NCBI GenBank assembly: GCA_044892525.1
Contig: CM097887.1
Coordinates: 80,826,397-80,890,396 of the forward strand
Origin: Schmidtea polychroa
Lineage: Eukaryota
DNA: 64,000 nucleotides
Reading direction: 5' to 3'
The translations under genes were made by a program, and so were the position numbers. Below are positions 12,355 to 42,618 of this stretch, one piece after another. The notes beneath the pieces were generated by a model. That model worked only from the letters and a program-made list of their open reading frames with translations. It ran no database searches and was not told where the DNA came from. The stretch's first letter is position 1, and each line of letters begins with the position of its first letter.

Positions 12355-15300
12355 TGTTGGGCTGAGCCGAAGGGTAGCTGAGAAATCAGGTTAAACTTAA
12401 CTAAAGTAAAATAAAAAATAAAATAAATAGATTGACGAATAAAATAGAATAGAATATAAGAAAAAGCAATAATTAGAAAATAAGAATTAAAACAAAAAAT
12501 ATAAAAATAAGAACAATTAAAATAGGACAATAGAATGACAAAAAATAACGTAAAATGTAGTAGATAATAAGGAAATTAAGGAAAATAAATAAAAACACAA
12601 TAAAAATAAAGAAAATAGGAAGAAATAACTCAAAAACAAGAAAAATAAATTAAATTAATAAAATTAAGCGGTACTCAATTCTGATTGGTCCGCATAAACG
12701 AAAAATATCTATATAAGTAAACAGCAAACTCACTATAGTCAATGTTAAAACCAAACCAATTACAGGTAAGAAATAGTATTAAGTAATGTAAAATGTTAAA
12801 ACCAAACCAATTACAGTTACAGGTACTCGACAATCCAGAAAACCGACCGACACTCAGACGACTATTAGGAACAGTTCTATTGACAATTCATTCATATAAC
12901 CGATTTGATTAGTGTATATTTCGGCTCAGCCTTTGGAATCACAGAATTTTTCAAACAATAAGTAAGGATGTATTGCTATTGTAAAATTTGTTTTTTCAAG
13001 GATTAAATATTTTATTATATTAACGTAACTTTTGAATAAAAACTTCTCCATTCGATCTCAATTTTTTAATGATAATATAGTTCGTAAATTAATTTAAAGG
13101 TTAATGATATATGAATGTTTATGATATGTTTTGTCGTCGAACGTATTGATTGTGATAAAATTATTTTTGAGAAACGTGGAGTTGAGGAGACCCACGCCAT
13201 GGTGTGAGGAGCCTTCGGGAGCTCAGCCGGCGGGTGTGGATCTCTTCAATCACGCAGCTGACGTGGGCCGGAATGTGGGGGTTTCCTCACGGGTCCGTCG
13301 CTGAAGGAAGTAAAATGCTGCAAGCACGAGTTTAAAGTATAGAGGAATGCATTCAAATATTGAAAAGTAGAGCAATCTTAATTGAAAATGACTGAGGTGG
13401 CTACAAATTCTTATTAGACATCACACTCTGAAATTTCATCTGACATCAGAAATCGTATTCTTGCCTCAACTGACACTCTATCTTCTAGTGGCAAAATACT
13501 CTTCTATCAAAACTCACGTCAATAGAGAAACTGAGTACTAATATGTTCATTAAATGTAAAATCATAATATAGGAAGCATAAACGAAGATTTATTCAACAA
13601 AAATTTTAGTACTAATATATTTTTCAACAAACCCTTTAATTTTTTCATTTCTCCTGAAAATCCACAATAGCGGCAACATGAAGTTCTTTCTATAAATGAC
13701 TCTTTCGACCAATATAGGTGGAACTCTTTTGAATGAGTTGCTGTAAATATTCCACGAAATCACAACATCCAAATTGAAAACCGGAGGAAACTGCACATCA
13801 TGAGAATAAATTCCAACGTTCATGCTCGATGAGAACTAATCATAGGTAGCATATTGAATAACTGAAATAAATCCAACTCGCGGTATGAGACGATCAGCTG
13901 CAACCCGTTAACGTAGATAATGAGAGAGCAGACGAGACAAGTCACACGCATTGCTACACATAAATACACACTTACATATGCCGCATGCATTATTTTCCCA
14001 GTCAGCTAATGACGATGAGAACAAAAATTGAAGTACACGCACATGACATAATTATCTCCGATCGATATCTAACTTTCAGATTCATGTTGTTAATGAGTTC
14101 TACGAGTGAGCTATGCATTACCGGATGACTGTTATCAATTAGCTAGATTTCATAGATTAATTGCACCAGTAAATTCCATAACAAAAATGAATAGATCGAT
14201 TTTCAGGATAGGAATAAAAATCTAATCATACTCGAATCCTTAAAAATCTAATGGTAGCACAGTGATTGAATATGTTTTTTCGATTTTCATATACCAATAT
14301 GAATTACGATTTGAGGTAATTAATTTAAGGAGCATTCCCGCGGCACTAGAGAACTTTGTTTTTACGTTTTTTAAAGATAAATATCTGTATTCGAAAAGTT
14401 ATATGTAAAAATGAATATTAATTATTTAATTATGCAAACATTCTAATGTTTCCTAAACAATTTCTACGAAACCGATAATTCTAACGTTCACTGAGTCAAT
14501 ACATTTGCGAGTCATCTTTCACCTAAATATTTGAGAATCTCAGATAACAATAGGTAATGGATATTCTAAGTATAATCATAAACTTTTGGCAAAGTATTAA
14601 TCAGATGTTAATTTCTCTTGCAACCCCAAATAGACATCCAAGAATTCACTGAATGCAATTATAAAACACTATTTCTAACGGAACCATATCATTGACCTTT
14701 TATCCATTTTACTTAATTTTTCGAAATTAATAAATGATCATGTCCCATGCTGGTTTAGTAGAAATCGCTGATCTTAATTCTTATTCTCATTGTTTTTTCT
14801 TTGTTACAGTTATCAAAAATGTTGCCAAGCTCGAGGCCGTCGCTCAAACCCTGTTTCTCCTGTGCCGACAAAAACACCGTAATCCGAGAATTACAGGCCC
14901 AGATCGGTCGATATAAAAAGAAGATCGACGATCTGGAAGGTACATGGTTTAGCCCAGTACAAATGAAGGAGGTGCAAAAGAAATTGTACCGCAGCGAGCA
15001 TTGTCGCGATGCTTTGATAAGCGAAAGTAGAGCTCAGCGTAGCCTAATCAAAGAGCAGTCCGAAGCTCTACATAAAGTTTACGTTCAAGCCGCGACAACC
15101 CCGAAGATCGTTAGTATCCCGATTAAAGAAGCGGACAATATCTTCCCCGTCCACCATGAACCTTCATTTAGTTCACCACCCTTATCAAAAAGATCTTGTC
15201 GTGAATGCGTGGAGGCCGACCTCTCCCCCAGGCCAACGGACGTACCTACTCCCGGCACCGGCAAGGTATTGCCATCAACCACGACGTCCTCAGAAATCTT

Positions 15301-16103
15301 GTCTGCCAACCCTTCGAAACCTAAACGTCGCCAATTATCCAGAGCGGAGCGTAAGAAGCGTCAACGCGAACGAGCAATCGTCAAACAACGAGAACTATCT
15401 TCCAACCACCCAAGTACTTCGAATGACCCCCCCGTAACGATCGATCTAACCGTAGGGATCCCAGGGCGAATAATATCTGCCGCTGGCGTGACTTGGGAGG
15501 AGAATGCCTCCGAGGTTTTTGATCTAGATGAACTATTGGCGGATGCAGAATGGGAGAAGTGAGAATCGCAACACAATACAACCGTGCAGAGTGTTAATGG
15601 ACAAATAAACTATCATGACTCCTTTTCCTCTTAATCCATTTTCCACTAAGTGTACTCGTTATATAGTGCCATAATTATATAGTGTATTATGATAATAGAA
15701 TAGAGAAATTTGTGGGTTATTTCTTGTTGTTGTTTTGATTTAAATAGTTGTTGTAAAGGTTTAGAGTAGTGTTCACAAAGTGATCCATAAAGCGAGAGTA
15801 AATTTTGAGTCCGAGAGGCAATAGTCAATTTTGTGTCAAATTATGGGACAGGGTAGAGAGAGAATCTGATGAGGTAAACAGACGTAAGTCCTTCCATCGG
15901 CAGTCAGCAAGGGAAGTCGAGGCCTCAGTAAGGAGTAGGGGCACATTTCCAACGTGAAGCAATTCGCGGGTGCTATGTTGGAGAGTAAGTTGTGCGGGGT
16001 CCTGCTCCGGGTTGACACGGGCGTATGTAGCGTGATGATATGGGCACGCATCCCCTAGACAAAGATGTAGATTGAGCAGAGTCAACCGAGCGCTACCCCA
16101 GCA
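12355..16103 (+). repeat. 5' LTR (3,749 bp)
   Basis: Direct repeat of 38828-42618. By eye I counted 7 substitutions and 3 indels (11, 32 and 1 nt). AATAAA at 15604. Confidence 0.97.
14734..15562 (+). CDS. LTR-encoded ORF (~258 aa if a 52-nt intron 14758-14809 is spliced); putative nuclear regulatory protein
   Basis: 253-codon open frame intact in both LTRs. The upstream ATG joins in phase 0 through GTAGAA...CTGAT..polypyrimidine..CAG. Contains CxxC plus coiled coil, a basic KRRQ..RKKRQRER tract and an acidic-aromatic C-terminus. Confidence 0.65.
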
Positions 16104-16110: not shown

Positions 16111-16129
16111 TGGGGGCTCAGCCAGGATT
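16111..16129 (+). promoter_or_regulatory. Primer-binding site, tRNA-Pro-like
   Basis: TGGGGGCTCAGCCAGGATT versus the tRNA-Pro complement TGGGGGCTCGTCCGGGATT (3 mismatches), 7 nt downstream of the 5' LTR. Confidence 0.75.
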
Positions 16130-16393: not shown

Positions 16394-16879
16394 ATGACGG
16401 AATTCGCAGAACAGATGCAACAATTAATTAATTTCATTAATATAGAAAACGACCCTATTAAAACACTCATACAAAAAAGAAAGCGAATCAACAGCATTCT
16501 ACTCCAAGCAATCGGACACACACCAGTCGTACCTAATCACGTGTTATTGGCCGCAGGTTTAAGCCACTCAGATGAAAAGATAAATCACGAAACAGTATAT
16601 CAATGGTACCTAAAACGACTAAAAAACCCGGCCCTAAATCTAGAATACGAGCGACTAAAAGATCAACTACATACAATATCAGAGGCAATCGAACAAAAGA
16701 TACAAGAGAAACTCACCAAATTGCGAACCTGTCTGTCTTGCAATCTTCGCCCTATACGCATACTATTCTTACCTTGTGGACACCTCAGTCATTGTGAAGA
16801 ATGAGTGAAAGATCTGAAACGATGTACAATATGTAAAAATGGGATAAAAGAATCCCATATGGTTTATTACGGTGATTAA
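16394..16879 (+). pseudogene. IAP-type C-terminal RING E3 ligase ORF without BIR; premature TGA at a Zn-ligand Cys codon
   Basis: CLSC..ILFLPCGHLSHCEE*VKDLKRCTICKNGIKESHMVYY continues in frame past the stop and aligns with the cIAP/XIAP pattern CxxC..FxPCGHxxxCxxC..CPIC. Confidence 0.85.
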
Positions 16880-17435: not shown

Positions 17436-17962
17436 TAAAGCCGAGCTGTTAAGTAGTCCAGCCGGTCAAGGAAAATGAAAACTGAGCTGTGAAAAGTCCA
17501 GCCAGTTCGGAGATATTAAGATCGAGTTGTTGAATAGTCCAACCGATCAGAAGGAAGAAGATTGAGCTGTTGAATAGTGCCAGCCAGTCGTAAGATCGAG
17601 TTGTTGAATAGTCCAACCGATCAGAAGGAAGAAGATTGAGCTGTTGAATAGTGCCAGCCAGTCGTAAGATCGAGTTGTTGAATAGTCCAACCGATCAGAA
17701 GAAAGAAGATTGAGCTGTTGAATAGTGCCAGCCAGTCGTAAGATCGAGTTGTTGAATAGTCCAACCGATCAGAAGGAAGAAGATTGAGCTGTTGAATAGT
17801 GCCAGCCAGTCGTAAGATCGAGTTGTTGAATAGTCCAACCGATCAGCAGGAAGAAGATTGAGCTGTTGAATAGTGCCAGCCAGTCGTAAGATCGAGTTGT
17901 TGAATAGTCCAACCGGTCAGAAGGAAGAAGATTGAGCTGTTGAATAGTGCCAGCCAGTCGTA
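17436..17962 (+). repeat. Tandem array of six 74-bp higher-order units plus degenerate leading subunits
   Basis: ATCGAG recurs at 17521, 17595, 17669, 17743, 17817 and 17891. Each unit holds two GAGYTGTTGAATAGT subrepeats. Confidence 0.95.
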
Positions 17963-19326
17963 AAGGCCTAGAAAAGCGAGAAATAGCAGTTAAGCTGCAA
18001 TGAGATAATATTTAAATTAATAGCGAAATGGAATATTAAAGCTAGCTAGAAACAAATTGAATGTAATTACGAAATTTGAGTTTAGAGAGGAAATAAACGA
18101 GCTCGTGGAAAAGATGATGGATTATAGTGAAAAAGGGAGGGGAAAAAGGAAATGAATTAAAGAGATAATGGATAATAAAGAATAGGTGAAATGATGATAA
18201 TGAGTAGAAGAGGAAAGTAACTAACTAATTAAAGGGATCCCAGTGAAGTAGAGAAACTCTACGGAATATTTTTTTTGGTTAAACCGGGAAAATGCATTTT
18301 TATTGGTTCCAGAGTAGAACCGAGTGGGATAATAGTAAATATGAAAAGTAAAATAGCGGCAACAGCGCAAAAGGAATAAGAAAACGAAGGGGGGTAATAA
18401 GCAGAGACCGACAACGACCTATTTATACTATAATTGATAAAGATAGATAATTATTTTGACTTTATAGATAATTGTTACTACCCCATATAGATAATTTAAA
18501 ATCGACGAAAAATACGGGCTGATGGGAAATTATAACCCGCGGAAAAGAGTTCACAAAAGATAGGGAAAAACAAACAGAAACCTAAAAGGTGTCTGTGTTT
18601 GAATGTTGCAGAAAGAATGATGAAGTCGTGTAAGCAGATGCAACACGAGATCATTTTTTCATTTTAGATATCAAACCAAGCCAGCCAATCAAGCCAATCC
18701 AGAACCTGCACAAAAGGAATTCGAGGAAATCGACAATCGACCAAGAATAAATCCATTCAGAACCCGCACCGAGAAACACAGCAACCGGAAGACTCCAGAA
18801 CGGAAGAAGATACAGATAGCGACATCTCCAACTTCGAACGAATCACCGATATATTCAACCTCATAGTATTAGCAGCCATCTGTCAAGGACTAGTAAATCT
18901 CCTCAGAATCGCAGTAGCAGACTCATACCGAACAATTTACGAAGGAAACTTCATCAGAACCCAATCCACCCAATTCAGTAGCCGCTAATTACAAGGAAGC
19001 GTAAGAAAAGAATCACGGATAAACCTCATCTCAGATCATCAAGTAAGTCAGGCGACGTATTATTTTCAGGAGACGAATTACAACAACTCAAAAGAGGACG
19101 ATCTATTAAACATCAAAGAGGAATATCACAAGGAGCAAGAAGAACCAATCAAGTACCCATATTTGACCAAGAAAATCTCGGATACACCCCTAGTCGATCT
19201 CGAAGCAGAGAAAGTCTGTCCGATATCACTAATAGTTTAGCAACGTCAACCGAAGAATTATCAGCCCAAAGTTTAGTCACATCGTTAGACAATTTAAAAG
19301 AAACAGACGAATCTAGAACACCAATC

Positions 19327-20841
19327 ATGACGAATGTCGTAAAAACCGACGAGTATAAAGAGAAGTTTAGAGGAGAACCGTTCAATGGAAATGCAAACAA
19401 GTTAGCAACGTTTATAACTAATTTTGAAGTTTATATCACGGTGTGTGGATGGACACCCGAAGCAATTAGCAAAAGGATGCCGTTGTTTTTGTGCGATAGC
19501 GCATTAGAAGTATATTTAGAAGCTAAAGAGAGAGATACGAAATTAGAGAAGTGGGAAGATATCAAAACATTCTTGAAGAAAACCTTCGGAGCCAGTAAGC
19601 CAATCAACCAGGCGTTGGGCGAACTAGCAAATAGGAAACAAAGAGCAAACGAATCGATAACATTATATGCCAGTGAATTACGGAGATTAGCGAAGAAAGC
19701 AATGAATGGAAAATTACCCGAGGAAAATCTGATCGGCTATTTCATAGAGGGATTACGCCGAGAAGAGGTAAGAGCCTCAGTAGGCTGTCAAATGTGCAAA
19801 ACGTTAGAGGAAGCCATAGACTGGGCTACAAGATGCGAGCTCCACCTTCCAGTTCAAATGAATATTATGCAAGAGGATGGGAGGATAGCGACAGCAATAG
19901 CGAAAGCAGATACCGGAGATAACAACAATCAGGAACCGAAAATGAACCAATTTATACCAGGAGCGCATCAAATTTTCAAACCACCACAAGGACGATCAAA
20001 TGGGAAAAATGGTAATCGTAACAACCTGAATAACGAGAACAACTTTAATAATCGACGAAGTTTGAACGATAACAAGCAATGCCGAACATGCGGTAAACCA
20101 GGACACTGGGACAGAGATTGTTATAGAAATGCAAATTGTAATCGTTGCGGACGGCGTGGACATACGGAAAATATATGCCAATTGAGAGGTTGTTTTAACT
20201 GTGGTCAGCCAGGTCACATCTCCAGAGACTGCCGAGAAAGGGGCCAACAACAACGACCGCCACAGCGAAATACTAATTATGTATCGAATCCGCAACGACA
20301 AAGTAACCCTGGTGAAAGAAAACAAATGAACGTTATGCAGGAAATCTCACAAATGAAACAGATGATGCAACAAATGATGAGACCAAGACAAGAACCAGCA
20401 CCACATCAAACCCAGAATATACGTATGATGAGGAGTACCGAAAATCTCAACAGTTATGAAGTACATCAACATGTACAAGAATGGCAAAGACTACAGGCCG
20501 AGGAAGAGAGGATAAAACAAGAACGCAACCAACAACGACAAGAACAACCATTGCGAATAAATATGATGAAGTTAGTAAAAGACATGAAAAGCCAGTACTG
20601 TTACAATTACGGGAAAAACCCAAGGGTAGTACCCATGACTGAACCAGAAAAGGTAAAAGAAACAACAACGGAAATGAAAACAGGGAATTCAACCACGATC
20701 TTAAAAGGGAACCAGAGAATTCAGAAAATATTCTGGAAAAAGATAAAAGATAAAATAGAAAAGAAACATGAAGAAACGGAAATAAGAATAAAAGAGGAAA
20801 ACAACCAAAACAAGGAGCAAATCAGTCAGCTAAACCACTAA
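19327..20841 (+). CDS. gag: Gag: capsid domain plus three CCHC zinc knuckles
   Basis: Retrotransposon gag-like N-terminus (PFNG..FITNFE..W..MPLFL..ALEVY). Knuckles CRTCGKPGHWDRDC, CNRCGRRGHTENIC and CFNCGQPGHISRDC. Confidence 0.95.
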   Translation: MTNVVKTDEYKEKFRGEPFNGNANKLATFITNFEVYITVCGWTPEAISKRMPLFLCDSALEVYLEAKERDTKLEKWEDIKTFLKKTFGASKPINQALGELANRKQRANESITLYASELRRLAKKAMNGKLPEENLIGYFIEGLRREEVRASVGCQMCKTLEEAIDWATRCELHLPVQMNIMQEDGRIATAIAKADTGDNNNQEPKMNQFIPGAHQIFKPPQGRSNGKNGNRNNLNNENNFNNRRSLNDNKQCRTCGKPGHWDRDCYRNANCNRCGRRGHTENICQLRGCFNCGQPGHISRDCRERGQQQRPPQRNTNYVSNPQRQSNPGERKQMNVMQEISQMKQMMQQMMRPRQEPAPHQTQNIRMMRSTENLNSYEVHQHVQEWQRLQAEEERIKQERNQQRQEQPLRINMMKLVKDMKSQYCYNYGKNPRVVPMTEPEKVKETTTEMKTGNSTTILKGNQRIQKIFWKKIKDKIEKKHEETEIRIKEENNQNKEQISQLNH

Positions 20842-22107
20842 ATGCTACAAGAATTGGAATCAGAAGAAACAACGATATTTGAAAGAAGGAAACTAAAGCG
20901 AGTACCACGGATGAGGAATCTGCGAATCAACATGATGAAAAGGACAGAAGATGCGACATTGTCAGACGAAGAGGAAGACTATGTGAGTAGTTTGGGTGGA
21001 GAAATACTACAGCTAAACGAAACTAGCGAACCTCCAAAGGGGGAAATCAAAGAGGAAGAAAGCGAAAGCGAGATAACCAGTGAAAGTGAAGACGAGGATA
21101 TCGAATTAAAGTTGAGGAAAGTGAGGGAGGAAGCGATAAAACAAGTAGCTGAAATACTCCCGGTGGTAGTGAGAAACCAAGAGTTCATCGATGTAATACC
21201 ATTCAGGCGATTCGTACAAAAAGTGATGAAATTGGAAAGAAACGAGAAAGATTTAATACCAAGCGAAGAAAAGTTGATAATAAAAAAGTATATGGAAAAA
21301 ATGAAGCAGGTCGATACCACTCGATATGTAATAAAAATCGGAACGAGTAAAGGACTTGAAAGGATATGGATTAAAAACACAGTCACCGACGAACTTTTCG
21401 ATTGGATACGAGAGCACTTAGGTAGCTCGAGGAAAAAGGAGTACCTATACCAATATCAAGGAGAGCAAGTTAAACCAGATATGCACTTAGTAGACGCACT
21501 GATCTGGCCAGGAGAAACGCAAATACTAAAGTTGCACAAAGAAAAACAACCAGCCAATCTTTACGATTGGGCTAAAGATGCCAAGGCAGAATATGATTTC
21601 AATATCAAATTGAAATTAGAACAAATAAAACAATGTACTCTGAGACGAAACCTGGACAAGCTGATCAAGCAAATTCAAGAACAAGTAGAAGACAACTGGG
21701 ATTTACTCATTACCGGACGAGCCCCAGCCATATACGAACTAATGAGCCGATTGCGAGATACAGAATTGCTCCGAATGAGTGATTGGAGAACCATAAATTT
21801 GATTCACAAATATGGAAGGTTAAAAGAAACCCAGCCACAGAAGTTAGAAATAACCATATGGTTACCGAACGAAGAGAAACGACGAATAAAAATGAGCAAT
21901 CAGAGTACAGTGGATGATTTGGTATCAAAGATAAACCAAGAGATAACGGAAAAGGTACGTAGCGAAAGTAGTGATGGTATGGTAGATGATGTAGTCATGA
22001 TGTACGATAAAATAATATTACGAGCGGAGGACGACACCTCGTTGAGCGAAATGGGTATGTGGGACGATCATCAGATAATCAGGATAGTACCAATGGATGA
22101 ATTTTGA
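20842..22107 (+). CDS. In-frame continuation of gag after a single TAA; two predicted ubiquitin/SUMO-like beta-grasp domains
   Basis: RYVIKIGTSKG..YLYQYQGEQVKPDMHLVDALIWPGETQILKL (21322-21540) and LEITIWLPNEEKRRIKMSNQSTVDDLVSKI..MMYDKIILR..TSLSEMGMWDDHQIIRIV (21838-22090). Confidence 0.6.
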   Translation: MLQELESEETTIFERRKLKRVPRMRNLRINMMKRTEDATLSDEEEDYVSSLGGEILQLNETSEPPKGEIKEEESESEITSESEDEDIELKLRKVREEAIKQVAEILPVVVRNQEFIDVIPFRRFVQKVMKLERNEKDLIPSEEKLIIKKYMEKMKQVDTTRYVIKIGTSKGLERIWIKNTVTDELFDWIREHLGSSRKKEYLYQYQGEQVKPDMHLVDALIWPGETQILKLHKEKQPANLYDWAKDAKAEYDFNIKLKLEQIKQCTLRRNLDKLIKQIQEQVEDNWDLLITGRAPAIYELMSRLRDTELLRMSDWRTINLIHKYGRLKETQPQKLEITIWLPNEEKRRIKMSNQSTVDDLVSKINQEITEKVRSESSDGMVDDVVMMYDKIILRAEDDTSLSEMGMWDDHQIIRIVPMDEF

Positions 22108-22146
22108 ACAAGAGACGTAACGTATCAAAAAGAAATACGAGACCGG

Positions 22147-23523: not shown

Positions 23524-23546
23524 AGCAAGAACAAGGGGAAGTTCGA

Positions 23547-30236: not shown

Positions 30237-33200
30237 ACTGCGGGATTAAATATCAAGTTCTACCAAGAAAGTTATAAAGATTTACACGATCGAAAGAAAA
30301 ACGTGAAGCAACATACGTTTCAAACAGGCGATTGGGTGATGATCGAGACCCCAGAATTAATTCCCGGAACCACAAGAAAGTTACAACGGAACGGAAAAGG
30401 GCCATATGAGATCGTGTTCGTAGGCGAAACCAATGTAAGAGTGAAATTGGTAAATAATCCATTCACCAGGCCAATATACGTAAACGTGGCACGATGCAAA
30501 TCAATTCCAAAAACAGCCACCAGTCAACCAGAAGGCCGTACATTAACCACACGTTCGCAAACCTACAGAATGAACATGATGCAACAACTCGCAGAACCTA
30601 TCACTGGACGATTGGGCATACAACCATCGGAAGCTGAAAAAATCGTACGAGAGGTAAAGATAAAATTACCCGGATGGGCAAAAGATCGATTAGATTTCGA
30701 AATATTAGGAGGATTATTGACGATGATCGAAAACTATGCAAACAGAGAGAGGACACATCCGTTATTGCGAGTAGTTAAAAGTCAATGGCCAATATTATTT
30801 ACAATAACAGATCATTATGGAGACACACCATTACACAAACTCATGAAAGTAGGTAACAACGAGCAAATACTAGAAACAATAGAAGCATTTCACGACTGCA
30901 AGCGATCAACAGAACAAGAAAACAACCAAGGCTACACACCATTAATGATAGCAGCAAACAGAGGCAAAATAAAAGACATTATAACCGCATTACTTGATAC
31001 TGGATCAAAAATAACTACACAAGATCACGAGCGGAAAAACGCACTACATCATGCTATCGAAGGGAAAAGTACCGAGGCGTTCACGTCGTTGATGGAACTA
31101 CTATCATATGAGGACAATCAAGAAGTCGGAAACATGTATGATGGATTATTAACAGCGATCAAAGAGAAACTGACAACAATTACCGGAGTATTAATCACTT
31201 GGAGAAACCCAATTAAAAATAATTATATGATCAACGTAAACGAAGCATTCACGAGAGGAGAGAACACGCTTATGAGAGAAGCTATGAAAGGACATCATTT
31301 ATTCGAAATCCCGAATCAATTACTAGAACGAGGAATAACATTCACAAATCATAAGGATGAGCAGTTATTAAAAAAGCGAATTGACACATTCGAAAAATCA
31401 ATATTCCAATTCATTACTCAGGTACGAAATAAATATTGGGAAACGGTAAGTGTGTTATACATGATGGACACGATGAACAACATCCGCGAGAATTACCTAG
31501 ATATTATTCAAATACTTACCGCAGAGGAACGAATCAATAATCCAACCGGAAAGAAAATGAAAATAAGGCATGGGAAATCAAGAGAACCAAAGTCGCAAAC
31601 GAACCAAACGATCGCAAATAAAGTCATCGAAACAAATTCAATGAGTGTAGATCAAAGAGCAATAATATGCAAAGCGAAAGAAGTGTTCTTTGAGGAAATG
31701 CTAGAGCTCTCAGATGAAATAATAAAAACCGTGCATACATATGCAAGAGATCAAACAACGAATTTGGACATCGGTAAAATCAAAACCTTCTTGCCCCCAG
31801 CATTTACGATGGTAACGAAGGATTCCAGAACACCACTACAACAGGCAATATTAGCAGCGAAAGAAAATAGAGCAATAACGATCATGAGAATCCTTAGGGA
31901 TATGGGCGAGGAAACCAACACGAAAAATGAACAAGGCGAAACCGCCATGATGTATGCAGCTATAACGAAAATACACCCAAAAACACTCCACATACTACAT
32001 CAATCAGGATCGAGACTAGACGAAAAGTCAAACGAAGGGAACTCCACTATGGACTGGGCAACCATACAGCCTAATTTAGAAATGATCAGATTTATTTGCA
32101 AAAATGCGACAAGAGAAGAAGTTGAAAATATATGCAAAAACACAGCTCAATTTCAATGGAATACGGTACGGAAAAATCTAGAAGCAATGAAATTATTATT
32201 AACATGGAGAGTACCACAAAATAATAAATATGCGATAAATGTAAACGAATTCTACGAAAACGGAGAAAACGCGATGGTAAAGAATACATTAACTAAAGGG
32301 GGGACACCAAAAATTATTTTAATAGTACTAAACAGAGAAGACCTCAAATTCACGCAAAATCAGAACGAGCAACAACGAATTGGGAAACATCGTCGTATTC
32401 AAATGAGAGAATTAGTCAAAGAATGGAATAGAAAGAGACATGCTGCGACGGGTAGAAAAGAGTTTGAATTCGAAGCAAAGTTAGCAAGGAACAGAGTGTT
32501 AACAGCATATCGCAGATTATTGAACGATATAAATGTCGAGGACGACATTTTAAACGACAGCGGGGGAGATAAACACGATGACAATGACGGAAAAGGCCGA
32601 AAAGAGGATAAAGGGAAAAGAGAACCGGAAGAGGATAAACCGGAAAACAAGGATTCGGGTACGAGAAGAGAGGGAAACAGCCCGGGAACCAAGACCAAAG
32701 AGGAGGAAAAACCGAATAATGGAAAACAGAGGGTATGCCTACCTTTCACTAACAAAGAAATAGAAACAAATATGATCTTAATGATAATCATGCTAACCAT
32801 GATAGAGTTAGTAACAGCTCATGGAGGGACGAGAACGATAAAAGAAACCAAAGAAGCGGAGAATCAAGATAGCAAAGAGGAAGAACTAAAACAAGAAAAG
32901 AAAAAGCAAGCACAAGAGCAGCAGTGGGATTTAAAGGAAGAATGGGGCCTAAAGGAAAGGTGCATACTAGGAAGATGTATGTCTAGAGCGTATCAGAGAT
33001 TAGTACTGATAAATGAGGACACAGAACCGATAACAGAAGTAAGAATACAAGAAGCATACCGAAATCGAGACGGCAAGAGAATAACGAACGTTAAAGGAAA
33101 AGAGGTGCACCTAGGAAAAGGAGGTGAAGTAGTAATAACGCAGCTCCAACCAAGAAAAGAACACAAAGTCTGTATTTCAAGATTAGGACCAGGTGAGAGA

Positions 33201-33773
33201 TGCCATCAATATGTTACGCAGCAGCAGCCCCCGAAAGAATACACGGTTTGTATCTGGAGGAACGAATCAAAAAGGGAATGCCGACGATACCCGGGGAAAA
33301 GAGGAAAGAAAAGAAAAAACCACGACGAAAAGGACGAAGGAGGAAAGCACAAGAAAACCGGCGAGGAAGCTCAGGACAACTATGTTTCGGAGGAAGAGAT
33401 GGAAAAAATACAAAAGATGGCAAAGGAGGGTATGAACGAGGAAATAACAAGAATACGAGAGAGGATGAAAGGAAATGGCAAAAGAGGAAACGAGAAAAGT
33501 ACAGAAGCGATATCAACATTAACAAACAAGGAAAAACCAGAGAGTATAAGCGTGAAGCAGATGATGTGGATCAGCGGGATAATAATAACAGGGGCATTCC
33601 TAATCATAACGGGGGGAACAATAAAAATAATTAAATATAAACGACATCGCGGAGAACTAGAGATGACCCGAATCAGAAATTTCCAACATCGAGTGAAACG
33701 ACCAAGTGATATCAAACAAGAACAGTGGGTGGAGGCCTGGAACGCTCAGCGCCCTCCAAACTCACGTATATAG
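30237..33773 (+). CDS. Integrase C-terminus (GPY motif) fused to two ankyrin-repeat blocks and a predicted type I membrane protein
   Basis: In frame with pol across a TAA. GDWV..KGPYEI; ANK motifs GDTPLH, GYTPLMIAA, KNALHHA, GETAMMYAA; hydrophobic MILMIIMLTMIELVTA; TM WISGIIITGAFLIITGG. Confidence 0.85.
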   Translation, partial: TAGLNIKFYQESYKDLHDRKKNVKQHTFQTGDWVMIETPELIPGTTRKLQRNGKGPYEIVFVGETNVRVKLVNNPFTRPIYVNVARCKSIPKTATSQPEGRTLTTRSQTYRMNMMQQLAEPITGRLGIQPSEAEKIVREVKIKLPGWAKDRLDFEILGGLLTMIENYANRERTHPLLRVVKSQWPILFTITDHYGDTPLHKLMKVGNNEQILETIEAFHDCKRSTEQENNQGYTPLMIAANRGKIKDIITALLDTGSKITTQDHERKNALHHAIEGKSTEAFTSLMELLSYEDNQEVGNMYDGLLTAIKEKLTTITGVLITWRNPIKNNYMINVNEAFTRGENTLMREAMKGHHLFEIPNQLLERGITFTNHKDEQLLKKRIDTFEKSIFQFITQVRNKYWETVSVLYMMDTMNNIRENYLDIIQILTAEERINNPTGKKMKIRHGKSREPKSQTNQTIANKVIETNSMSVDQRAIICKAKEVFFEEMLELSDEIIKTVHTYARDQTTNLDIGKIKTFLPPAFTMVTKDSRTPLQQAILAAKENRAITIMRILRDMGEETNTKNEQGETAMMYAAITKIHPKTLHILHQSGSRLDEKSNEGNSTMDWATIQPNLEMIRFICKNATREEVENICKNTAQFQWNTVRKNLEAMKLLLTWRVPQNNKYAINVNEFYENGENAMVKNTLTKGGTPKIILIVLNREDLKFTQNQNEQQRIGKHRRIQMRELVKEWNRKRHAATGRKEFEFEAKLARNRVLTAYRRLLNDINVEDDILNDSGGDKHDDNDGKGRKEDKGKREPEEDKPENKDSGTRREGNSPGTKTKEEEKPNNGKQRVCLPFTNKEIETNMILMIIMLTMIELVTAHGGTRTIKETKEAENQDSKEEELKQEKKKQAQEQQWDLKEEWGLKERCILGRCMSRAYQRLVLINEDTEPITEVRIQEAYRNRDGKRITNVKGKEVHLGKGGEVVITQLQPRKEHKVCISRLGPGERCHQYVTQQQPPKEYTVCIWRNESKRECRRYPGKRGKKRKNHDEKDEGGKHKKTGEEAQDNYVSEEEMEKIQKMAKEGMNEEITRIRERMKGNGKRGNEKSTEAISTLTNKEKPESISVKQMMWISGIIITGAFLIITGGTIKIIKYKRHRGELEMTRIRNFQHRVKRPSDIKQEQWVEAWNAQRPPNSRI

Positions 33774-34378: not shown

Positions 34379-35767
34379 ATGGATAAACGACAAAGAGAAG
34401 AGTTCAGAGAGATTGTCGAACAAGTCCGAAAATCTACAACGATCAGAATACACAAACATGTTATGTGCGGAATATGTGAAAAGTTGCTAAAAGAACCCCA
34501 CCAAACCCTATGTGGATGCAGATTATGTAAGGAATGTATCAGTGAAGCAATAAAGAATAGACCACAGTGGTGCCCGGTGTGTAAAGAGACATTAATATCG
34601 AGTTTAGAAGACACTAACGAGGATAAAGCCGCAGTGAAAGACATGTTAAACACCAATCTGGGATGCAAAAATACCCCATGCGAATGGAAAGGAGTAATAT
34701 GGAAAGTAGTGCAACATATGGGAGAATGTATGTACAGAATCGGCCAGTGTGAAAGGTGCCATAAAACCATTCGAGCAAGCGAAGAAAAAGAGCATCAAAG
34801 CCAGTGTGAAGAGAGACTAGAAAGATGTAAACATTGTGGAGAAATAGATACGTGGAAAAATCTCACCAGCAAACATCACAATGTCCAAGAGGAAAAGGTA
34901 TGTGCAGAGTTCAGTGGGGAATGCCCGAACGGATGCGAGGAAGGGAGAATAATAAAAATAGCCCAACACCTAAAGGAATGTGAAAGGAAAAGAATGACAT
35001 GTGTACTCGGTAAATGGGGCTGTCAGAAGCTACTACACCGAGGAGAGTTACCACATCATTTAGTAGAAAATGCTTCAACCCACGCAGAAATGTGGTCGAC
35101 TGCGCTACAAGAAAGTGAAGAGAAAGTAAAACAAATGGAGATAGAGATAACATCGTTGAAAGTGTTAGTCAAAGAACTACTAGAAGAAAGAAAAGCGTTC
35201 GAAGAAGCCCGAGCTAACATAAAGATGCAAATAAATCGTATAGAAATCAGCAATAATCAGGCCAAGGTGCTACATCAAAAGATAACTGAGATAAATCTAA
35301 ATGAAGTAATACCAACAGCACCCTACGTGTGGAAAATAACGGGAGTAAAAGAAAGAATACGAAAAGCCAAAACCGGAGAAGAGACAAAAATAACGAGCCC
35401 CGCATTCCAGTCTTGGAAAAATGGGTACAAAATGAAAATGAAGATATATCCCAACGGGGACGGAACCGGATTAGATACAGACTTTTCGATTTTCTTTCTG
35501 TTATGCAAAGGGGAATACGACGAAATAATAGAATGGCCGTTCCAGGCAAAGATCGATATTGCACTAATGAATGACCGAAGCATCCACGAACAAAGCTTCA
35601 AGACAACGGGAAACCAAATGTGTTACCAGAGACCTACGGAAGAAGAAGGATCAGCAACGGGAGCGCCTACGTTCATCCTACAACAAAAAGTAGAGGATAT
35701 GGCGAGAAATGACACAGTATATATCAAGATGACTGTGAGGAAAGAGGGGAAGGGTAGAACGGAGTAA
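34379..35767 (+). CDS. Intact, intronless TRAF (RING, TRAF zinc fingers, coiled coil, MATH domain)
   Basis: CGIC..CGCRLCKEC..CPVC RING; Cys/His fingers; MATH YVWKI..SPAF..GYKM..IYPNGDG..FSIFF..GEYD..WPF. Confidence 0.95.
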   Translation: MDKRQREEFREIVEQVRKSTTIRIHKHVMCGICEKLLKEPHQTLCGCRLCKECISEAIKNRPQWCPVCKETLISSLEDTNEDKAAVKDMLNTNLGCKNTPCEWKGVIWKVVQHMGECMYRIGQCERCHKTIRASEEKEHQSQCEERLERCKHCGEIDTWKNLTSKHHNVQEEKVCAEFSGECPNGCEEGRIIKIAQHLKECERKRMTCVLGKWGCQKLLHRGELPHHLVENASTHAEMWSTALQESEEKVKQMEIEITSLKVLVKELLEERKAFEEARANIKMQINRIEISNNQAKVLHQKITEINLNEVIPTAPYVWKITGVKERIRKAKTGEETKITSPAFQSWKNGYKMKMKIYPNGDGTGLDTDFSIFFLLCKGEYDEIIEWPFQAKIDIALMNDRSIHEQSFKTTGNQMCYQRPTEEEGSATGAPTFILQQKVEDMARNDTVYIKMTVRKEGKGRTE

Positions 35768-35923
35768 CCCATCGAATAATGTTGTATATACTAATCTGTA
35801 TATATCGGTGTATATATCCAATAACATATTATATAATAATAGTATGAAAAACCCTAAATACGAAAACCCAAAAATGATGCGAAAATTTCCGAAAAAACAG
35901 TAACTAATGAATAAAAATTTTCC

Positions 35924-37015
35924 ATGATAAAAAGATTAATAGATATCTATGATTTAGAAATGACACAAGAGAAAATAACCGAAACTACGATAGCCCCAAC
36001 CAATATCAACAAGACACAAATTCCCCGAGAATATAACGAAAAATGGAACAAAGTAATGTTCCAACTAACTAATCTCACCCGAAATCACATCGAAGAAGCT
36101 AGAGAGGATGAGAACAGTAAATATCAATGGCTAATACACAATTTAAGAGAGGAAGCAGAAGCATGTAAAAGAGCATCAAAATGGGCGTCATTAGAAAATA
36201 CCCGCCAAGAAGCACACAGCCACTACTTGAAACAGCTAGTGCAGGAAGCTAGAAAGAGACTCACCGATGAGAACACCAAGCGCGAAGCGGAAAAGCAAAT
36301 AGAAGCGAGGAAAATGATGCACTTAGTGGCAGAAGCGAGAAAATGGAAAAGGCAAAACAGTGAAATGAAAAAAGAAATGAAAGAATTGCCCATGAGACTC
36401 GGATATGAAAGTGAACAGGGCAAATGGGAGGAGAATTTAATAATAAAAGAAGAATTGAAACGGTTGAGAAAGCTCGCCGCCGGTAGCCAAACATGGCAAA
36501 CAAAAGCCATGGAATTTGAGCGACATTTGGCAATAAAATGCGACATAAGAGAGCACGAGAACGCCGCAATGGAAGAGATGATAACCCAACAAGCAGGACG
36601 GGTTGTAGAATTAGTGAATCAGGTCGTAGAGATGAAAAGAGACCTTAATGGATTACAAGGATCGCTGGAACAAAGAAACATGGTCCTAGCTGGAAAAAAT
36701 AAAAAATTAGAAAACGAGAGGAAAATGTATACCGAAAATATTAAAAACTTAGAAATAGAAATTGAAAAATGGAAGGGCGACGAGAAAATCAAGGCCCTAG
36801 ACAGACAAATAGAGGTGAAAGACGAAGAGACAAGGTATCTCACCTATCTGCTCGACGAAGAGCTGAACATCACTCGAGCTCTAAGAGACGAAATTAATGA
36901 GTTGAGAGCCCAAATTCCCCAATATTACATACCATATGACCCTATTGCTATCCAGCTACAGGCATCGGTCGAAAGCGATGAGGGATACGTGGGCCAGGAG
37001 GAAACCTTCGTATAA
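35924..37015 (+). CDS. Coiled-coil protein of unknown function (363 aa)
   Basis: Long intact ATG ORF with E/K/R heptad character and the same A-rich codon style as the element. Confidence 0.7.
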   Translation: MIKRLIDIYDLEMTQEKITETTIAPTNINKTQIPREYNEKWNKVMFQLTNLTRNHIEEAREDENSKYQWLIHNLREEAEACKRASKWASLENTRQEAHSHYLKQLVQEARKRLTDENTKREAEKQIEARKMMHLVAEARKWKRQNSEMKKEMKELPMRLGYESEQGKWEENLIIKEELKRLRKLAAGSQTWQTKAMEFERHLAIKCDIREHENAAMEEMITQQAGRVVELVNQVVEMKRDLNGLQGSLEQRNMVLAGKNKKLENERKMYTENIKNLEIEIEKWKGDEKIKALDRQIEVKDEETRYLTYLLDEELNITRALRDEINELRAQIPQYYIPYDPIAIQLQASVESDEGYVGQEETFV

Positions 37016-37127
37016 GGTGATTAAAAAGATAAAAAACTAAAAATCGGGACGTTTACCCAAACAAAAAAATTAAAGTATTGTAAAAGTATTCAAGGGACTG
37101 TAACCCAAACTATTAAATTTTATATAA

Positions 37128-37898
37128 ATGTATATGTATAAGTCGCACTATAGCGCACCATTAACTGTACATATTATAGATATGAAAATCGAGGAAATAA
37201 TAGAAATTATGAGCGACGTAGAAGAGGGAGAGATTGAGGCAGAAACAACAGAAACACAAACGTTAAAGGCCGAGTTACGGGAAGAGAAGTACGAAAACGA
37301 GAGACTAGTAAACAAATATATAGAAGACCGAAAAATGATTAAAATACTAAAGAAGGAGTGCGAAGTGCTAGGAGAAATAAAGAGAGAAGCCGAAGAGAAG
37401 AATGAATGGCTGCAAGAACAACGAAAACGAGGAAGAAATTGGGAAAAGATTGCAGAGGAACTATGGCAAGAGAGGGCAAGCTTCAAGGCAGAAGAAGTAA
37501 TCCAGGATTATTGGAAAACAGAGGCGAAAGAACGCCAAATAACTATAAATAAATTAAATCGACAATTGGAGGAAAAACAACGAGAAAATGAGGAAATGAA
37601 GAAATGGATTCGCAAATACCAAGAGATCGAGAGAAAACAACAACAACAACAACAACAACGAAACCTTTCGCAGGAAAACGAACAAGATTTCCTACAAATC
37701 GAACTAAAAAGGAATCTCGATAAAAAACGGGAAGAAATTAGAAGATTGAAAAAGGAGATAAGGCACATGAAAAGGGAGGCCCGCGAAAAGAACAGACAGT
37801 TGGAAATGCTGCCCGAGTTAAGACACATAGTCATTAAAGCGGAATCCACCCTGATGAGGGTCGCCGAAAATAATCCCAAAGGAGAACCGCTTAACTAA
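37128..37898 (+). CDS. Coiled-coil protein of unknown function (256 aa, polyQ)
   Basis: Long intact ORF, E/K-rich helical, with a CAA repeat. Confidence 0.65.
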   Translation: MYMYKSHYSAPLTVHIIDMKIEEIIEIMSDVEEGEIEAETTETQTLKAELREEKYENERLVNKYIEDRKMIKILKKECEVLGEIKREAEEKNEWLQEQRKRGRNWEKIAEELWQERASFKAEEVIQDYWKTEAKERQITINKLNRQLEEKQRENEEMKKWIRKYQEIERKQQQQQQQRNLSQENEQDFLQIELKRNLDKKREEIRRLKKEIRHMKREAREKNRQLEMLPELRHIVIKAESTLMRVAENNPKGEPLN

Positions 37899-37936
37899 AC
37901 ACCACTAAGACCAATTGTAAATATAATGAATAATAA

Positions 37937-38596
37937 ATGTATAATAGTACAATGCAACGCGGAGTGGCGATAATCATAATAGTAGTGATGCATCTGATGG
38001 AAAGCCAACAAACCAATACCCAACCGAAAATTGTACGAGATTTCCGAAATCCGAACCAAAAATCCATACAAGAGTCCTGTCAATGCTCATACCCCAATGC
38101 AATAAAAGCCAACATCATCCAAAATCTCCAATCAGTCCAATCATATGTCAACAACATCAGAATGATATGTAAAAAGAACCCCATGTGTAAAATATTAGAT
38201 AAACGAATACTCGAACAAATCCAACAATTCGACCAATTGAAGCAACAAGTGCACCAAGAAGATCTTGGAAATCTCGCAGGAAGTACAAAAACACCTCCCG
38301 AAATCAATGACACCCATTATCTCATATATGTGGTGATCGCAGAGACCCTCCTCCTATGTCTACCAATACTCATGAAAATTTACGAAGTTAGAAATAGATG
38401 TAGAATCTCGACATCAATAAGAGTAACCTCGAACCAAAATCCTCAAGAAGTGCCCCTGACAAATCTTAACCCAACCCCATTCCGACCTTGAATCCCGAGT
38501 AACCAACCAATCCAGCCGAATGCTAACAGTCAGACCTATCTCAACATCAATACCCAAACCAACCAACAGCCGCCAGCAGAAGCAGCAAATGGTTAA
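37937..38596 (+). CDS. Small predicted type I membrane protein (signal peptide, Cys-containing ectodomain, TM); probable premature TGA at 38489
   Basis: GVAIIIIVVMHLMES signal-like segment; TM YLIYVVIAETLLLCLPILM; the frame stays open for 34 codons after the TGA. Confidence 0.6.
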
Positions 38597-38827
38597 CAGT
38601 TCATAAACTCTAACTCAAACATTTGTGTTATTATATGTGGAAACTTTTATTGTATGTACAAACTATCACCTTAAGTGATACTTGCTTGGTCTTGATTTGA
38701 CCTATATCTTAGAATAAAATTTTTTTTTATTGTAGTATAATTGTTTCGATATATCCTTTTTATGAATGCATGAATTAAGATAACTATGCAATTGCGGGAC
38801 GCAATTTTGATGGGTCCCCGAGTGATT

Positions 38828-41800
38828 TGTTGGGCTGAGCCGAAGGGTAGCTGAGAAATCAGGTTAAACTTAACTAAAGTAAAATAAAAAATAAAATAAA
38901 TAGATTGACGAATAAAATAGAATAGAATATAAGAAAAAGCAATAATTAGAAAATAAGAATTAAAACAAAAAATATAAAAATAAGAACAATTAAAATAGGA
39001 CAATAGAATGACAAAAAATAACGTAAAATGTAGTAGATAATAAGGAAATTAAGGAAAATAAATAAAAACACAATAAAAATAAAGAAAATAGGAAGAAATA
39101 ACTCAAAAACAAGAAAAATAAATTAAATTAATAAAATTAAGCGGTACTCAATTCTGATTGGTCCGCATAAACGAAAAATATCTATATAAGTAAACAGCAA
39201 ACTCACTATAGTCAATGTTAAAACCAAACCAATTACAGGTAAGAAATAGTATTAAGTAATGTAAAATGTTAAAACCAAACCAATTACAGTTACAGGTACT
39301 CGACAATCCAGAAAACCGACCGACACTCAGACGACTATTAGGAACAGTTCTATTGACAATTCATTCATATAACCGATTTGATTAGTGTATATTTCGGCTC
39401 AGCCTTTGGAATCACAGAATTTTTCAAACAATAAGTAAGGATGTATTGCTATTGTAAAATTTGTTTTTTCAAGGATTAAATATTTTATTATATTAACGTA
39501 ACTTTTGAATAAAAACTTCTCCATTCGATCTCAATTTTTTAATGATAATATAGTTCGTAAATTAATTTAAAGGTTAATGATATATGAATGTTTATGATAT
39601 GTTTTGTCGTCGAACGTATTGATTGTGATAAAATTATTTTTGAGAAACGTGGAGTTGAGGAGACCCACGCCATGGTGTGAGGAGCCTTCGGGAGCTCAGC
39701 CGGCGGGTGTGGATCTCTTCAATCACGCAGCTGACGTGGGCCGGAATGTGGGGGTTTCCTCACGGGTCCGTCGCTGAAGGAAGTAAAATGCTGCAAGCAC
39801 GAGTTTAAAGTATAGAGGAATGCATTCAAATATTGAAAAGTAGAGCAATCTTAATTGAAAATGACTGAGGTGGCTACAAATTCTTATTAGACATCACACT
39901 CTGAAATTTCATCTGACATCAGAAATCGTATTCTTGCCTCAACTGACACTCTATCTTCTAGTGGCAAAATACTCTTCTATCAAAACTCACGTCAATAGAG
40001 AAACTGAGTACTAATATGTTCATTAAATGTAAAATCATAATATAGGAAGCATAAACGAAGATTTATTCAACAAAAGTTTTAGTACTAATATATTTTTCAA
40101 CAAACACTTTAATTTTTTCATTTCTCCTGAAAATCCACAATAGCGGCAACATGAAGTTCTTTCTATAAATGACTCTTTCGACCAATATAGGTGGAACTCT
40201 TTTGAATGAGTTGCTGTAAATATTCCACGAAATCACAACATCCAAATTGAAAACCGGAGGAAACTGCACATCATGAGAATAAATTCCAACGTTCATGCTC
40301 GATGAGAACTAATCATAGGTAGCATATTGAATAACTGAAATAAATCCAACTCGCGGTGTGGGACGATCAGCTGCAACCCGTTAACGTAGATAATGAGAGA
40401 GCAGACGAGACAAGTCACACGCATTGCTACACATAAATACACACTTACATATGCCGCATGCATTATTTTCCCAGTCAGCTAATGACGATGAGAACAAAAA
40501 TTGAAGTACACGCACATGACATAATTATCTCCGATCGATATCTAACTTTCAGATTCATGTTGTTAATGAGTTCTACGAGTGAGCTATGCATTACCGGATG
40601 ACTGTTATCAATTAGCTAGATTTCATAGATTAATTGCACCAGTAAATTCCATAACAAAAATGAATAGATCGATTTTCAGGATAGGAATAAAAATCTAATC
40701 ATACTCGAATCCTTAAAAATCTAATGGTAGCACAGTGATTGAATATGTTTTTTCGATTTTCATATACCAATATGAATTACGATTTGAGGTAATTAATTTA
40801 AGGAGCATTCCCGCGGCACTAGAGAACTTTGTTTTTACGTTTTTTAAAGATAAATAACTGTATTCGAAAAGTTATATGTAAAAATGAATATTAATTATTT
40901 AATTATGCAAACATTCTAATGTTTCCTAAACAATTTCTACGAAACCGATAATTCTAACGTTCACTGGGTCAATACATTTGCGAGTCATCTTTCACCTAAA
41001 TATTTGAGAATCTCAGATAACAATAGGTAATGGATATTCTAAGTATAATCATAAACTTTTGGCAAAGTATTAATCAGATGTTAATTTCTCTTGCAACCCC
41101 AAATAGACATCCAAGAATTCACTGAATGCAATTATAAAACACTATTTCTAACGGAACCATATCATTGACCTTTTATCCATTTTACTTAATTTTTCGAAAT
41201 TAATAAATGATCATGTCCCATGCTGGTTTAGTAGAAATCGCTGATCTTAATTCTTATTCTCATTGTTTTTTCTTTGTTACAGTTATCAAAAATGTTGCCA
41301 AGCTCGAGGCCGTCGCTCAAACCCTGTTTCTCCTGTGCCGACAAAAACACCGTAATCCGAGAATTACAGGCCCAGATCGGTCGATATAAAAAGAAGATCG
41401 ACGATCTGGAAGGTACATGGTTTAGCCCAGTACAAATGAAGGAGGTGCAAAAGAAATTGTACCGCAGCGAGCATTGTCGCGATGCTTTGATAAGCGAAAG
41501 TAGAGCTCAGCGTAACCTAATCAAAGAGCAGTCCGAAGCTCTACATAAAGTTTACGTTCAAGCCGCGACAACCCCGAAGATCGTTAGTATCCCGATTAAA
41601 GAAGCGGACAATATCTTCCCCGTCCACCATGAACCTTCATTTAGTTCACCACCCTTATCAAAAAGATCTTGTCGTGAATGCGTGGAGGCCGACCTCTCCC
41701 CCAGGCCAACGGACGTACCTACTCCCGGCACCGGCAAGGTATTGCCATCAACCACGACGTCCTCAGAAATCTTGTCTGCCAACCCTTCGAAACCTAAACG

Positions 41801-42618
41801 TCGCCAATTATCCAGAGCGGAGCGTAAGAAGCGTCAACGCGAACGAGCAATCGTCAAACAACGAGAACTATCTTCCAACCACCCAAGTACTTCGAATGAC
41901 CCCCCCGTAACGATCGATCTAACCGTAGGGATCCCAGGGCGAATAATATCTGCCGCTGGCGTGACTTGGGAGGAGAATGCCTCCGAGGTTTTTGATCTAG
42001 ATGAACTATTGGCGGATGCAGAATGGGAGAAGTGAGAATCGCAACACAATACAACCGTGCAGAGTGTTAATGGACAAATAAACTATCATGACTCCTTTTC
42101 CTCTTAATCCATTTTCCACTAAGTGTACTCGTTATATAGTGCCATAATTATATAGTGTATTATGATAATAGAATAGAGAAATTTGTGGGTTATTTCTTGT
42201 TGTTGTTTTGATTTAAATAGTTGTTGTAAAGGTTTAGAGTAGTGTTCACAAAGTGATCCATAAAGCGAGAGTAAATTTTGAGTCCGAGAGGCAATAGTCA
42301 ATTTTGTGTCAAATTATGGGACAGGGTAGAGAGAGAATCTGATGAGGTAAACAGACGTAAGTCCTTCCATCGGCAGTCAGCAAGGGAAGTCGAGGCCTCA
42401 GTAAGGAGTAGTCCTAAGGTAGGGGCTCACCTGCTTACTGGAGTCTCGCCGGCATAGCACATTTCCAACGTGAAGCAATTCGCGGGTGCTATGTTGGAGA
42501 GTAAGTTGTGCGGGGTCCTGCTCCGGGTTGACACGGCGTATGTAGCGTGATGATATGGGCACGCATCCCCTAGACAAAGATGTAGATTGAGCAGAGTCAA
42601 CCGAGCGCTACCCCAGCA
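38828..42618 (+). repeat. 3' LTR (3,791 bp)
   Basis: Direct repeat of the 5' LTR. Ends CCCAGCA followed by the TSD CTGT. Confidence 0.97.
41207..42035 (+). CDS. 3' LTR copy of the LTR-encoded ORF
   Basis: Identical to 14734-15562 except for one S/N change. Confidence 0.65.

Follow-up and report, generated by a model that had tools for sequence, protein, structure and literature searches.

We analyzed a 64,000-nucleotide stretch of the Schmidtea polychroa genome (contig CM097887.1, positions 80,826,397 to 80,890,396 of the forward strand; hereafter the window), which contains a long terminal repeat (LTR) retrotransposon of 30,264 bp. It belongs to a young, high-copy family; this copy was inserted recently and is now broken. 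Taken as a whole, the element very probably represents a Burro-type Gypsy family in which a single long frame encodes the capsid, the envelope, and the enzymes of replication, and which carries host-like ubiquitin and cell-death modules likely to protect the cell in which it replicates. An earlier note, made from the letters of the window alone, had described such a unit with an anti-apoptotic and NF-kB toolkit; it was silent on the broken state of the window copy and on the single frame that runs from gag to the second surface protein in sister copies.

Structure and Boundaries of the Element

The element is bounded by a 5' LTR of 3,749 bp (12355..16103, + strand) and a 3' LTR of 3,791 bp (38828..42618, + strand), both with TG...CA ends. 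The pair differs by 7 substitutions over 3,748 aligned sites, with 3 gaps in addition. A CTGT target-site duplication lies on the left (12351..12354) and is matched on the right (42619..42622), and 4-bp duplications were also found at other copies and at solo LTRs; thus, the LTR-bounded, duplication-flanked unit of about 30 kb described previously was borne out. Two sister copies were 30,054 and 30,517 bp long. An 18-base primer-binding site for tRNA-Pro (16111..16128, + strand) matched the 3' end of the genome's tRNA-Pro at 17 of 18 positions, and the match was 18/18 in three other copies compared. Between the LTRs, the plus strand is rich in A, as the earlier note had stated: it is 40.7% A and 20.4% T, vs. 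about 34% A and 36% T in the flanks. The LTRs, the target-site duplication, the tRNA primer site, the order of protease (PR), reverse transcriptase (RT), RNase H (RH), and integrase (IN), and the Ty3-like RT identify the element as a Ty3/Gypsy LTR retrotransposon. A polypurine tract is a common Ty3/Gypsy trait and was not treated as defining: no purine run was present in the 47 bases before position 38828 (window 38781-38827), and the tract was likewise absent before the 3' LTR in one sister copy and in a copy of a second, Burro1-like family introduced below.

Two observations concern these termini. A conserved CCCGAGTG motif occupies the polypurine position in both families (window 38781-38827; L007 161-178; L042 4621-4632). 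The tRNA-Pro(TGG) genes, which encode the primer tRNA of the element, form a tandem array with a 475-bp period (G000:C1:130.90-130.95 Mb; L045-L048), and the tRNA-end pattern had 2,187 exact matches in the genome.

A Young, High-Copy Family

We searched the 781-Mb genome with the RT and scored 150 matches, so that the copy count is a lower bound. The family has at least 150 RT copies, with all 150 scored matches at 98-99% identity, and about 67 of these (hand count) lie in open frames of at least 4,700 codons. The LTR pairs of six other full-length copies were 0-0.37% apart, and six fetched LTR matches (L021, L024-L028) were solo LTRs with matching 4-bp duplications. The order of parts was identical in the five other full-length copies examined, and a TRAF gene recurred about 7.25 kb after the RT in many copies; therefore, the unit is not a chimera of the assembly. 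Element-borne TRAF copies number at least 150 in the genome. Contigs of two public runs covered 30/30 bins of 18900-38800; those of a run guessed to be RNA covered 30/30 bins and those of two other runs 23 and 11, coverage that we did not count as expression.

The subfamilies are mosaic, with no fixed association between pol and the LTR type, the TRAF allele (83-98% identity), or the outer portion of a small membrane protein (window 34855-38800 and LTRs vs. sisters). Pairs of RT matches about 26.2-26.4 kb apart, as expected for tandem copies sharing an LTR, were observed at three sites (G000:C4:46.25-46.28 Mb, C2:177.69-177.72 Mb, and C1:72.66-72.69 Mb). At G000:C1:162.82-162.84 Mb, a BIR match lies 16.5 kb after an RT match of the window's family, either as a nested insertion or as a recombinant.

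One Frame from Gag to the Second Surface Protein

The open reading frames (ORFs) of the window were searched against Pfam, and matches were graded as over or under the cut-off. In sister copies, gag, the ubiquitin-like and Bcl-2-like domains, env, pol, the ankyrins, and one membrane protein (the second surface protein) are joined in a single open frame of about 4,730 codons (ORF1; 4,732 and 4,811 codons in two sisters), corresponding to the polyprotein region 19327..33773 (+ strand) of the window, where this frame is broken. The gag-pro-pol assignment of the earlier note was confirmed, with all its parts over the cut-off: gag capsid and CCHC zinc knuckles (19480..20235, + strand), an aspartic protease with a DTGA motif (26514..26789, + strand), RT with YIDD followed by RNase H (28062..29114, + strand), and integrase (29430..30500, + strand), which comprises a zinc finger in a shifted frame in the window copy, a core, and a C-terminal part. 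Among solved structures, the RT was nearest to that of Ty3 (E 2e-88), whereas retroviral RTs matched at 1e-27 to 1e-31. The predicted fusogen also proved sound: Env (24111..25913, + strand) matched the Monjiviricetes fusion glycoprotein family PF24664 at E 3e-69, indicating a fusion glycoprotein of the chuvirus/gB type whose transmembrane helix lies at 25857-25913, and in both the window copy and its sisters it is placed in frame between gag and pol. A conserved domain without a Pfam match (26830..27200, + strand) occupies the slot of the dUTPase-like motif of Burro.

Alignment to an open-frame sister revealed, in the polyprotein region of the window copy, 4 stops in frame and 7 gaps that shift the frame, the latter near 20770, 20780, 22700, 22860, 23450, 29510, and 29690. 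This region is also interrupted by a nested miniature inverted-repeat transposable element (MITE) of 601 bp (27288..27888) with 14-bp perfect inverted ends and an 8-bp target duplication, the length of which leads us to take it as presumably hAT-like; this MITE was found in none of the other scored copies. The window copy thus cannot yield the polyprotein, and open frames persist in it for the TRAF, the coiled coils, and the LTR ORF. The 4 stops are a mild excess over the 0.6-0.8 expected from LTR age, and three sister copies had 1, 2, and 2 stops vs. 0.4-1.5 expected, counts that bear on the idea that an already dead template was mobilized in trans.

Cargo Domains and Selection

The complete TRAF of the earlier note was upheld. 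An intronless, full-length TRAF ORF (34379..35767, + strand), open in the window copy, contains a RING, zinc fingers, a coiled coil, and a MATH domain over the Pfam cut-off; it matched TRAF3 in the PDB at E 7e-27 and was nearest to TRAF3/1/2 among solved structures. A search of a large protein set with this TRAF gave 1 match at E 1e-20. Its RING has a Cys at the usual TRAF His position in 4/4 element rows of the alignment, and its groove, when aligned to TRAF3, lacks the serine triad, which has a known role in the groove of TRAF3.

The IAP-type RING was retained only in part. In the short ORF at 16394..16879 (+ strand), which a stop at 16802 breaks inside the RING in the window copy, the type of RING stood, since that of a sister copy matched the cIAP2 RING at E 3e-10 and cIAP2/cIAP1 were its nearest solved structures. 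No BIR was found by Pfam in 15 ORFs of the window copy and 14 ORFs of two sister copies, the BIR spacing pattern was absent from a six-frame check of the window element, and none of the 150 scored BIR matches of the genome falls within it. Judged from its sequence, this ORF carries a RING only and falls outside the definition of an IAP, which calls for at least one BIR.

The ankyrin repeats form two blocks (30720..32200, + strand) over the Pfam cut-off and were confirmed as such; their likening to IkB was not, as no IkB chain occurred among the best 60 of 99 PDB matches, those 60 being generic ankyrins. The three ubiquitin-like domains can be kept as weakly supported candidates. These conserved segments of 80-90 aa jointly gave a profile matching ubiquitin-fold chains at E 0.003-0.08. 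Candidate A (21304..21555, + strand), the weakest, had no ubiquitin-type Pfam match when searched singly; candidate B (21835..22104, + strand) had sub-cut-off matches to ubiquitin-fold families; and candidate C (approximately 22780..23020, + strand), broken by a frameshift here, matched Pfam ubiquitin in a sister copy at E 0.0034, under the cut-off. The putative Bcl-2-like helical domain (23640..24036, + strand) has a Pfam match at E 0.021, also under the cut-off, and a GGW motif that we take to be BH2-like; what we know as the NWGR motif is absent from it.

Selection was assessed from the ratio of nonsynonymous to synonymous differences (pN/pS), with bootstrap intervals, between two subfamily copies that are about 82% identical in DNA. 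The ratios, which are rough because synonymous sites were near saturation in several comparisons, so that the higher ones overstate dN/dS, were 0.02 for RT, 0.03 for IN, and 0.10 for Env; 0.06-0.08 for the ubiquitin-like and 0.06 for the Bcl-2-like domains; 0.15 for both the ankyrins and the domain of the second surface protein; 0.24 for TRAF and 0.50 for the RING ORF; 0.12-0.15 for the coiled-coil ORF at 35924..37015, with 0.38 as the other coiled-coil value; 0.23 and 0.48 between subfamilies for the LTR ORF; and 0.75 for the small membrane protein. All intervals lay below 1. The cargo, present in the sisters, is therefore kept across copies rather than drifting neutrally; the loss or neutral drift that the earlier note had named beforehand as refuting its reading was not seen, and on these ratios all cargo ORFs are judged to be under purifying selection.

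Relationship to the Burro Elements

Burro1 (GYPSM1) of Schmidtea mediterranea (Jurka 2007; Grohme 2018; both as described in PMC6431247) exceeds 30 kb and has an ORF1 of 4,873 aa (PMC6431247, section 7). According to PMC6431247, this ORF1 contains gag, MATH_TRAF_C, Ubi/SUMO-like, and BCL2-like domains, an in-frame env, PR, a dUTPase-like motif, RT, RH, and IN. The env lies between gag and pol and matches mononegavirus glycoproteins; BIR, ankyrin, and coiled-coil motifs are present as well; and interference of the proviruses with apoptosis and ubiquitination is already proposed there. The kind of element and nearly all of its domain combination are thus already published, and the novelty suggested in the earlier note for the combination is not supported.

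The window family shares with Burro1 a size of about 30 kb, long LTRs, one ORF1 near 5,000 aa, gag CCHC knuckles, candidate ubiquitin/SUMO-like and BCL2-like domains, an env between gag and pol, PR, the dUTPase-like slot, RT, RH, IN, ankyrins, TRAF/MATH, and coiled-coil ORFs. However, it has neither a MATH inside ORF1 nor the BIR-RING (B-IAP) gene; its only TRAF is a full-length ORF downstream of the polyprotein; it has two ankyrin blocks; and its ORF1 has about 4,730 codons, compared with 4,873.

Our BIR search led to a second multi-copy family in the genome, here called Burro1-like, of which two copies were examined. Its layout is LTR, BIR-less RING ORF, gag, two ubiquitin-like domains, MATH, a third ubiquitin-like domain, Bcl-2-like domain, env, pol, one ankyrin block, and membrane protein, followed by TRAF, BIR-RING, and coiled coil. 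One copy is 35.8 kb long, with an ORF1 of 4,790 codons and the MATH inside. As read from the sequence, this layout matches that printed for Burro1. Between the window family and the Burro1-like family, identity was 92% in RT, 88% in IN, 54-56% in Env, 34% in the Bcl-2-like domain, and 30-36% in TRAF. The primer site and LTR start are common to both; the ubiquitin-like and Bcl-2-like domains ahead of env are conserved and appear homologous at the same places; and the window RING ORF corresponds, in position and similarity, to the 5' RING ORF of the Burro1-like family and not to its BIR-RING gene. In contrast, the window family has a different surface protein and a small, variable membrane protein. 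We therefore regard it as a sister within the Burro clade, one with neither a MATH in ORF1 nor a BIR gene. Its membership in the clade is very likely, with RT identity to a family of the printed Burro1 layout as proxy and Burro1-4 compared by description, and the kinship to Burro raised in the earlier note is supported in this sense. The end of the Burro1-like ORF1 (L041 5400-7190) encodes a membrane-anchored protein of beta-rich repeats that faintly resembles the second surface protein of the window family.

Other published elements are also similar. BCL2-like, ankyrin, and TRAF motifs, the first of which is only a candidate in the window family, are noted for Burro-2, -3, and -4 and for the Dugesia (Girardia) tigrina element (PMC6431247). 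As judged from descriptions only, the window family may correspond to one of these three Burro elements. The D. tigrina element likewise has no MATH in ORF1 and bears it on an accessory ORF, which lies upstream, whereas the TRAF of the window family lies downstream (PMC6431247). Six GAG-ENV-POL elements of S. mediterranea with gB-type glycoproteins (HSV/gB-type errantiviruses, Smed_errantivirus_1-6) are described in the available part of PMC13524379; they share the env before pol and the gB/chuvirus-type glycoprotein. The nearest Env there is that of Smed_errantivirus_5, with about 103/187 residues identical (about 55%, hand count) over window positions 24279-24839, and the window element is identical to none of the six as given in that part of the source. 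The same part of its main text makes no mention of Burro or of TRAF or ankyrin cargo. The portions of PMC8532177 and PMC11410931 that we could draw on concern only the expression and size of Burro. In the literature searched, we did not find a full-length downstream TRAF, a BIR-less RING ORF, an LTR ORF, a second surface protein, or a swappable small membrane protein; Grohme 2018, Lee 2026, and the supplements, which lay outside the search, may show them.

Membrane Proteins, Additional ORFs, and Flanking DNA

Two further membrane proteins had been noted previously, and both were recognized by hydropathy. The second surface protein, at the end of the polyprotein (32760..33770, + strand), has an internal signal-like helix, a predicted beta-sandwich (32937-33236), and a transmembrane helix (33552-33608). 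It was modeled (pLDDT 69) as a beta-sandwich of six strands, for which the best Z was 6.2 among mixed sandwiches, and no longer homologues were found. An FN3 identity was dropped, there being no Pfam match. The small type I membrane protein (37937..38587, + strand) is shortened in its tail by a stop at 38489 in the window copy. Compared with five sister copies, its outer part is swapped and differs at synonymous sites too, whereas the transmembrane segment and tail do not; positive selection was ruled out, as the outer part had a pN/pS of 0.47-0.55 and the pattern is that of a segment swap.

The coiled-coil ORF at 35924..37015 (+ strand) has a homologue in the Burro1-like family and is followed by a second one (37128..37898, + strand). 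Within the LTR lies an ORF (14819..15562, + strand; second copy 41292-42035) of 247 aa from the first Met, whose product has a coiled-coil start, a basic stretch, an acidic end, and no Pfam family; a distant homologue is present in the Burro1-like LTR. The leader contains six copies of a 74-bp tandem repeat (17517..17963, + strand).

Outside its boundaries, the element interrupts a decayed frame of a protein-primed-type DNA polymerase B (11427-12354, - strand; PF03175, E 4e-8), probably a Polinton-like relic; three ORFs of the right flank gave no Pfam match fitting such a relic. The right flank also contains a second decayed RT/RNase H remnant (47405-48259, about 30% identity) and a long inverted repeat (44814-46814) that overlaps N stretches.

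Possible Roles of the Cargo

We lean toward a role of the cargo in the survival of the host cell, a reading drawn from the domain families. By analogy with Gypsy biology, reverse transcription would be primed by tRNA-Pro and followed by integration with a 4-bp duplication. The polyprotein would be cut by the element protease and signal peptidase, and Env and the second surface protein may be released into the secretory route via internal signal helices, as hydropathy suggests. The Bcl-2-like, TRAF, BIR-less RING, ankyrin, and ubiquitin-like domains would then tune host ubiquitin and death signaling, with the TRAF, whose partner groove is altered, serving as an adaptor of the E3 type; the cell that expresses them, which is probably a stem cell, would thereby survive. 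The available parts of the sources report that TRAF knock-down raises caspase-3 cleavage in planarians (PMC7586133), that TRAFs are induced through TBK1, and that S. mediterranea has no clear NF-kB homologue (PMC13563047); thus, TRAF/TBK1/caspase routes would be a likelier target than classical TNF-NF-kB signaling.

Several points weigh against this reading. The sole cargo with a reported function, the Burro1 BIR-RING gene, which is reported to protect stem cells from caspase death (Lee 2026, as cited in the accessible part of PMC13465017), is missing from the window family. The Bcl-2 assignment is weak, drawing on the sub-cut-off Pfam match and the printed Burro annotation. The fold model of the domain was of low confidence (pLDDT 55.5, pTM 0.40); with it, Foldseek gave no match at E 0.001, and VIA-align placed designed helical repeats in the top rows, with no Bcl-2 among the best 50. 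An atlas search with the domain reached a best score of 0.85 and no family, and, of 1.84 billion representatives searched with a profile, 3 matched, all of them unrelated repeat proteins. The Bcl-2-like domain noted earlier is thus weakly supported, and the model did not confirm its fold. The selection ratios carry the saturation described above; moreover, purifying selection in one frame indicates that the residues matter to the element and is not proof of an action on host death.

The main rival to a survival role is a role in particle assembly, which we consider appreciably less probable. In that case, the ubiquitin-like, ankyrin, RING, and TRAF domains would draw in ubiquitin and trafficking machinery to aid assembly or budding or to evade silencing, whereas the "Bcl-2-like" helices ahead of Env would form a structural or membrane-targeting domain. 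The lack of a BIR, a Bcl-2-like domain with neither NWGR nor a fold match, generic ankyrins, a TRAF groove without the TRAF3 triad, and two extra membrane proteins would all fit such a role. However, Bcl-2 is the nearest Pfam family consistent with the printed annotation, the Burro1-like sister family carries a genuine BIR-RING gene next to its TRAF, and host TRAFs are needed for cell survival (PMC7586133, in the part available). A bolder reading, which we think unlikely, is that of a true infectious invertebrate retrovirus with a multipart surface kit (a gB-type fusogen, a separate attachment-like beta-sandwich protein released from the end of the polyprotein, and a swappable small membrane protein), an LTR-encoded regulator, and a BIR-less RING and altered-groove TRAF that would redirect ubiquitin signaling without a caspase-binding domain.

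Poxviruses, asfarviruses, and baculoviruses carry anti-apoptotic and NF-kB-modulating genes, and the window family has the same classes (Bcl-2-like, RING, and ankyrin) by analogy only; it differs in lacking a BIR and in being carried by an RT-dependent element. A toolkit in the poxvirus style, in which an IAP and the TRAF act as a cIAP-TRAF2-like complex and IkB-like ankyrins shut down NF-kB, is improbable. The nearest solved structures of the TRAF and the RING agree with it. However, cIAP binds TRAF2 through BIR1, and the RING ORF has no BIR, the BIR-RING gene belonging to the sister family; the cIAP-TRAF2 analogy of the earlier note is therefore not supported, and the absence of an IkB chain among the best 60 of 99 ankyrin matches speaks against its IkB part. 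As for NF-kB as the target, the lack of a clear homologue in S. mediterranea argues against it, whereas divergent Rel-domain genes, which exist in that species according to the same portion of PMC13563047, would favor it. Our Rel-domain search of the genome gave no match, and the controls likewise gave none. Finally, a chimeric assembly or neutral captured host DNA, to which the many lesions and mosaic subfamily segments of the window copy might point, has a negligible probability and is refuted by the independent copies with the same part order and by selection (pN/pS far below 1), with the matching target-site duplication and the contig coverage also against it.

Burro elements are the best case of host survival genes borne by an animal retroelement, and a benefit to regeneration is reported for one of them. 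A young, high-copy, BIR-less second family in the same genome provides a natural control for asking whether such a benefit needs the BIR-IAP or whether TRAF, Bcl-2-like, and RING genes suffice. In addition, with so many element-borne TRAFs in this genome, counts of the planarian TRAF expansion, as given in the available part of PMC6109357, may include mobile copies.

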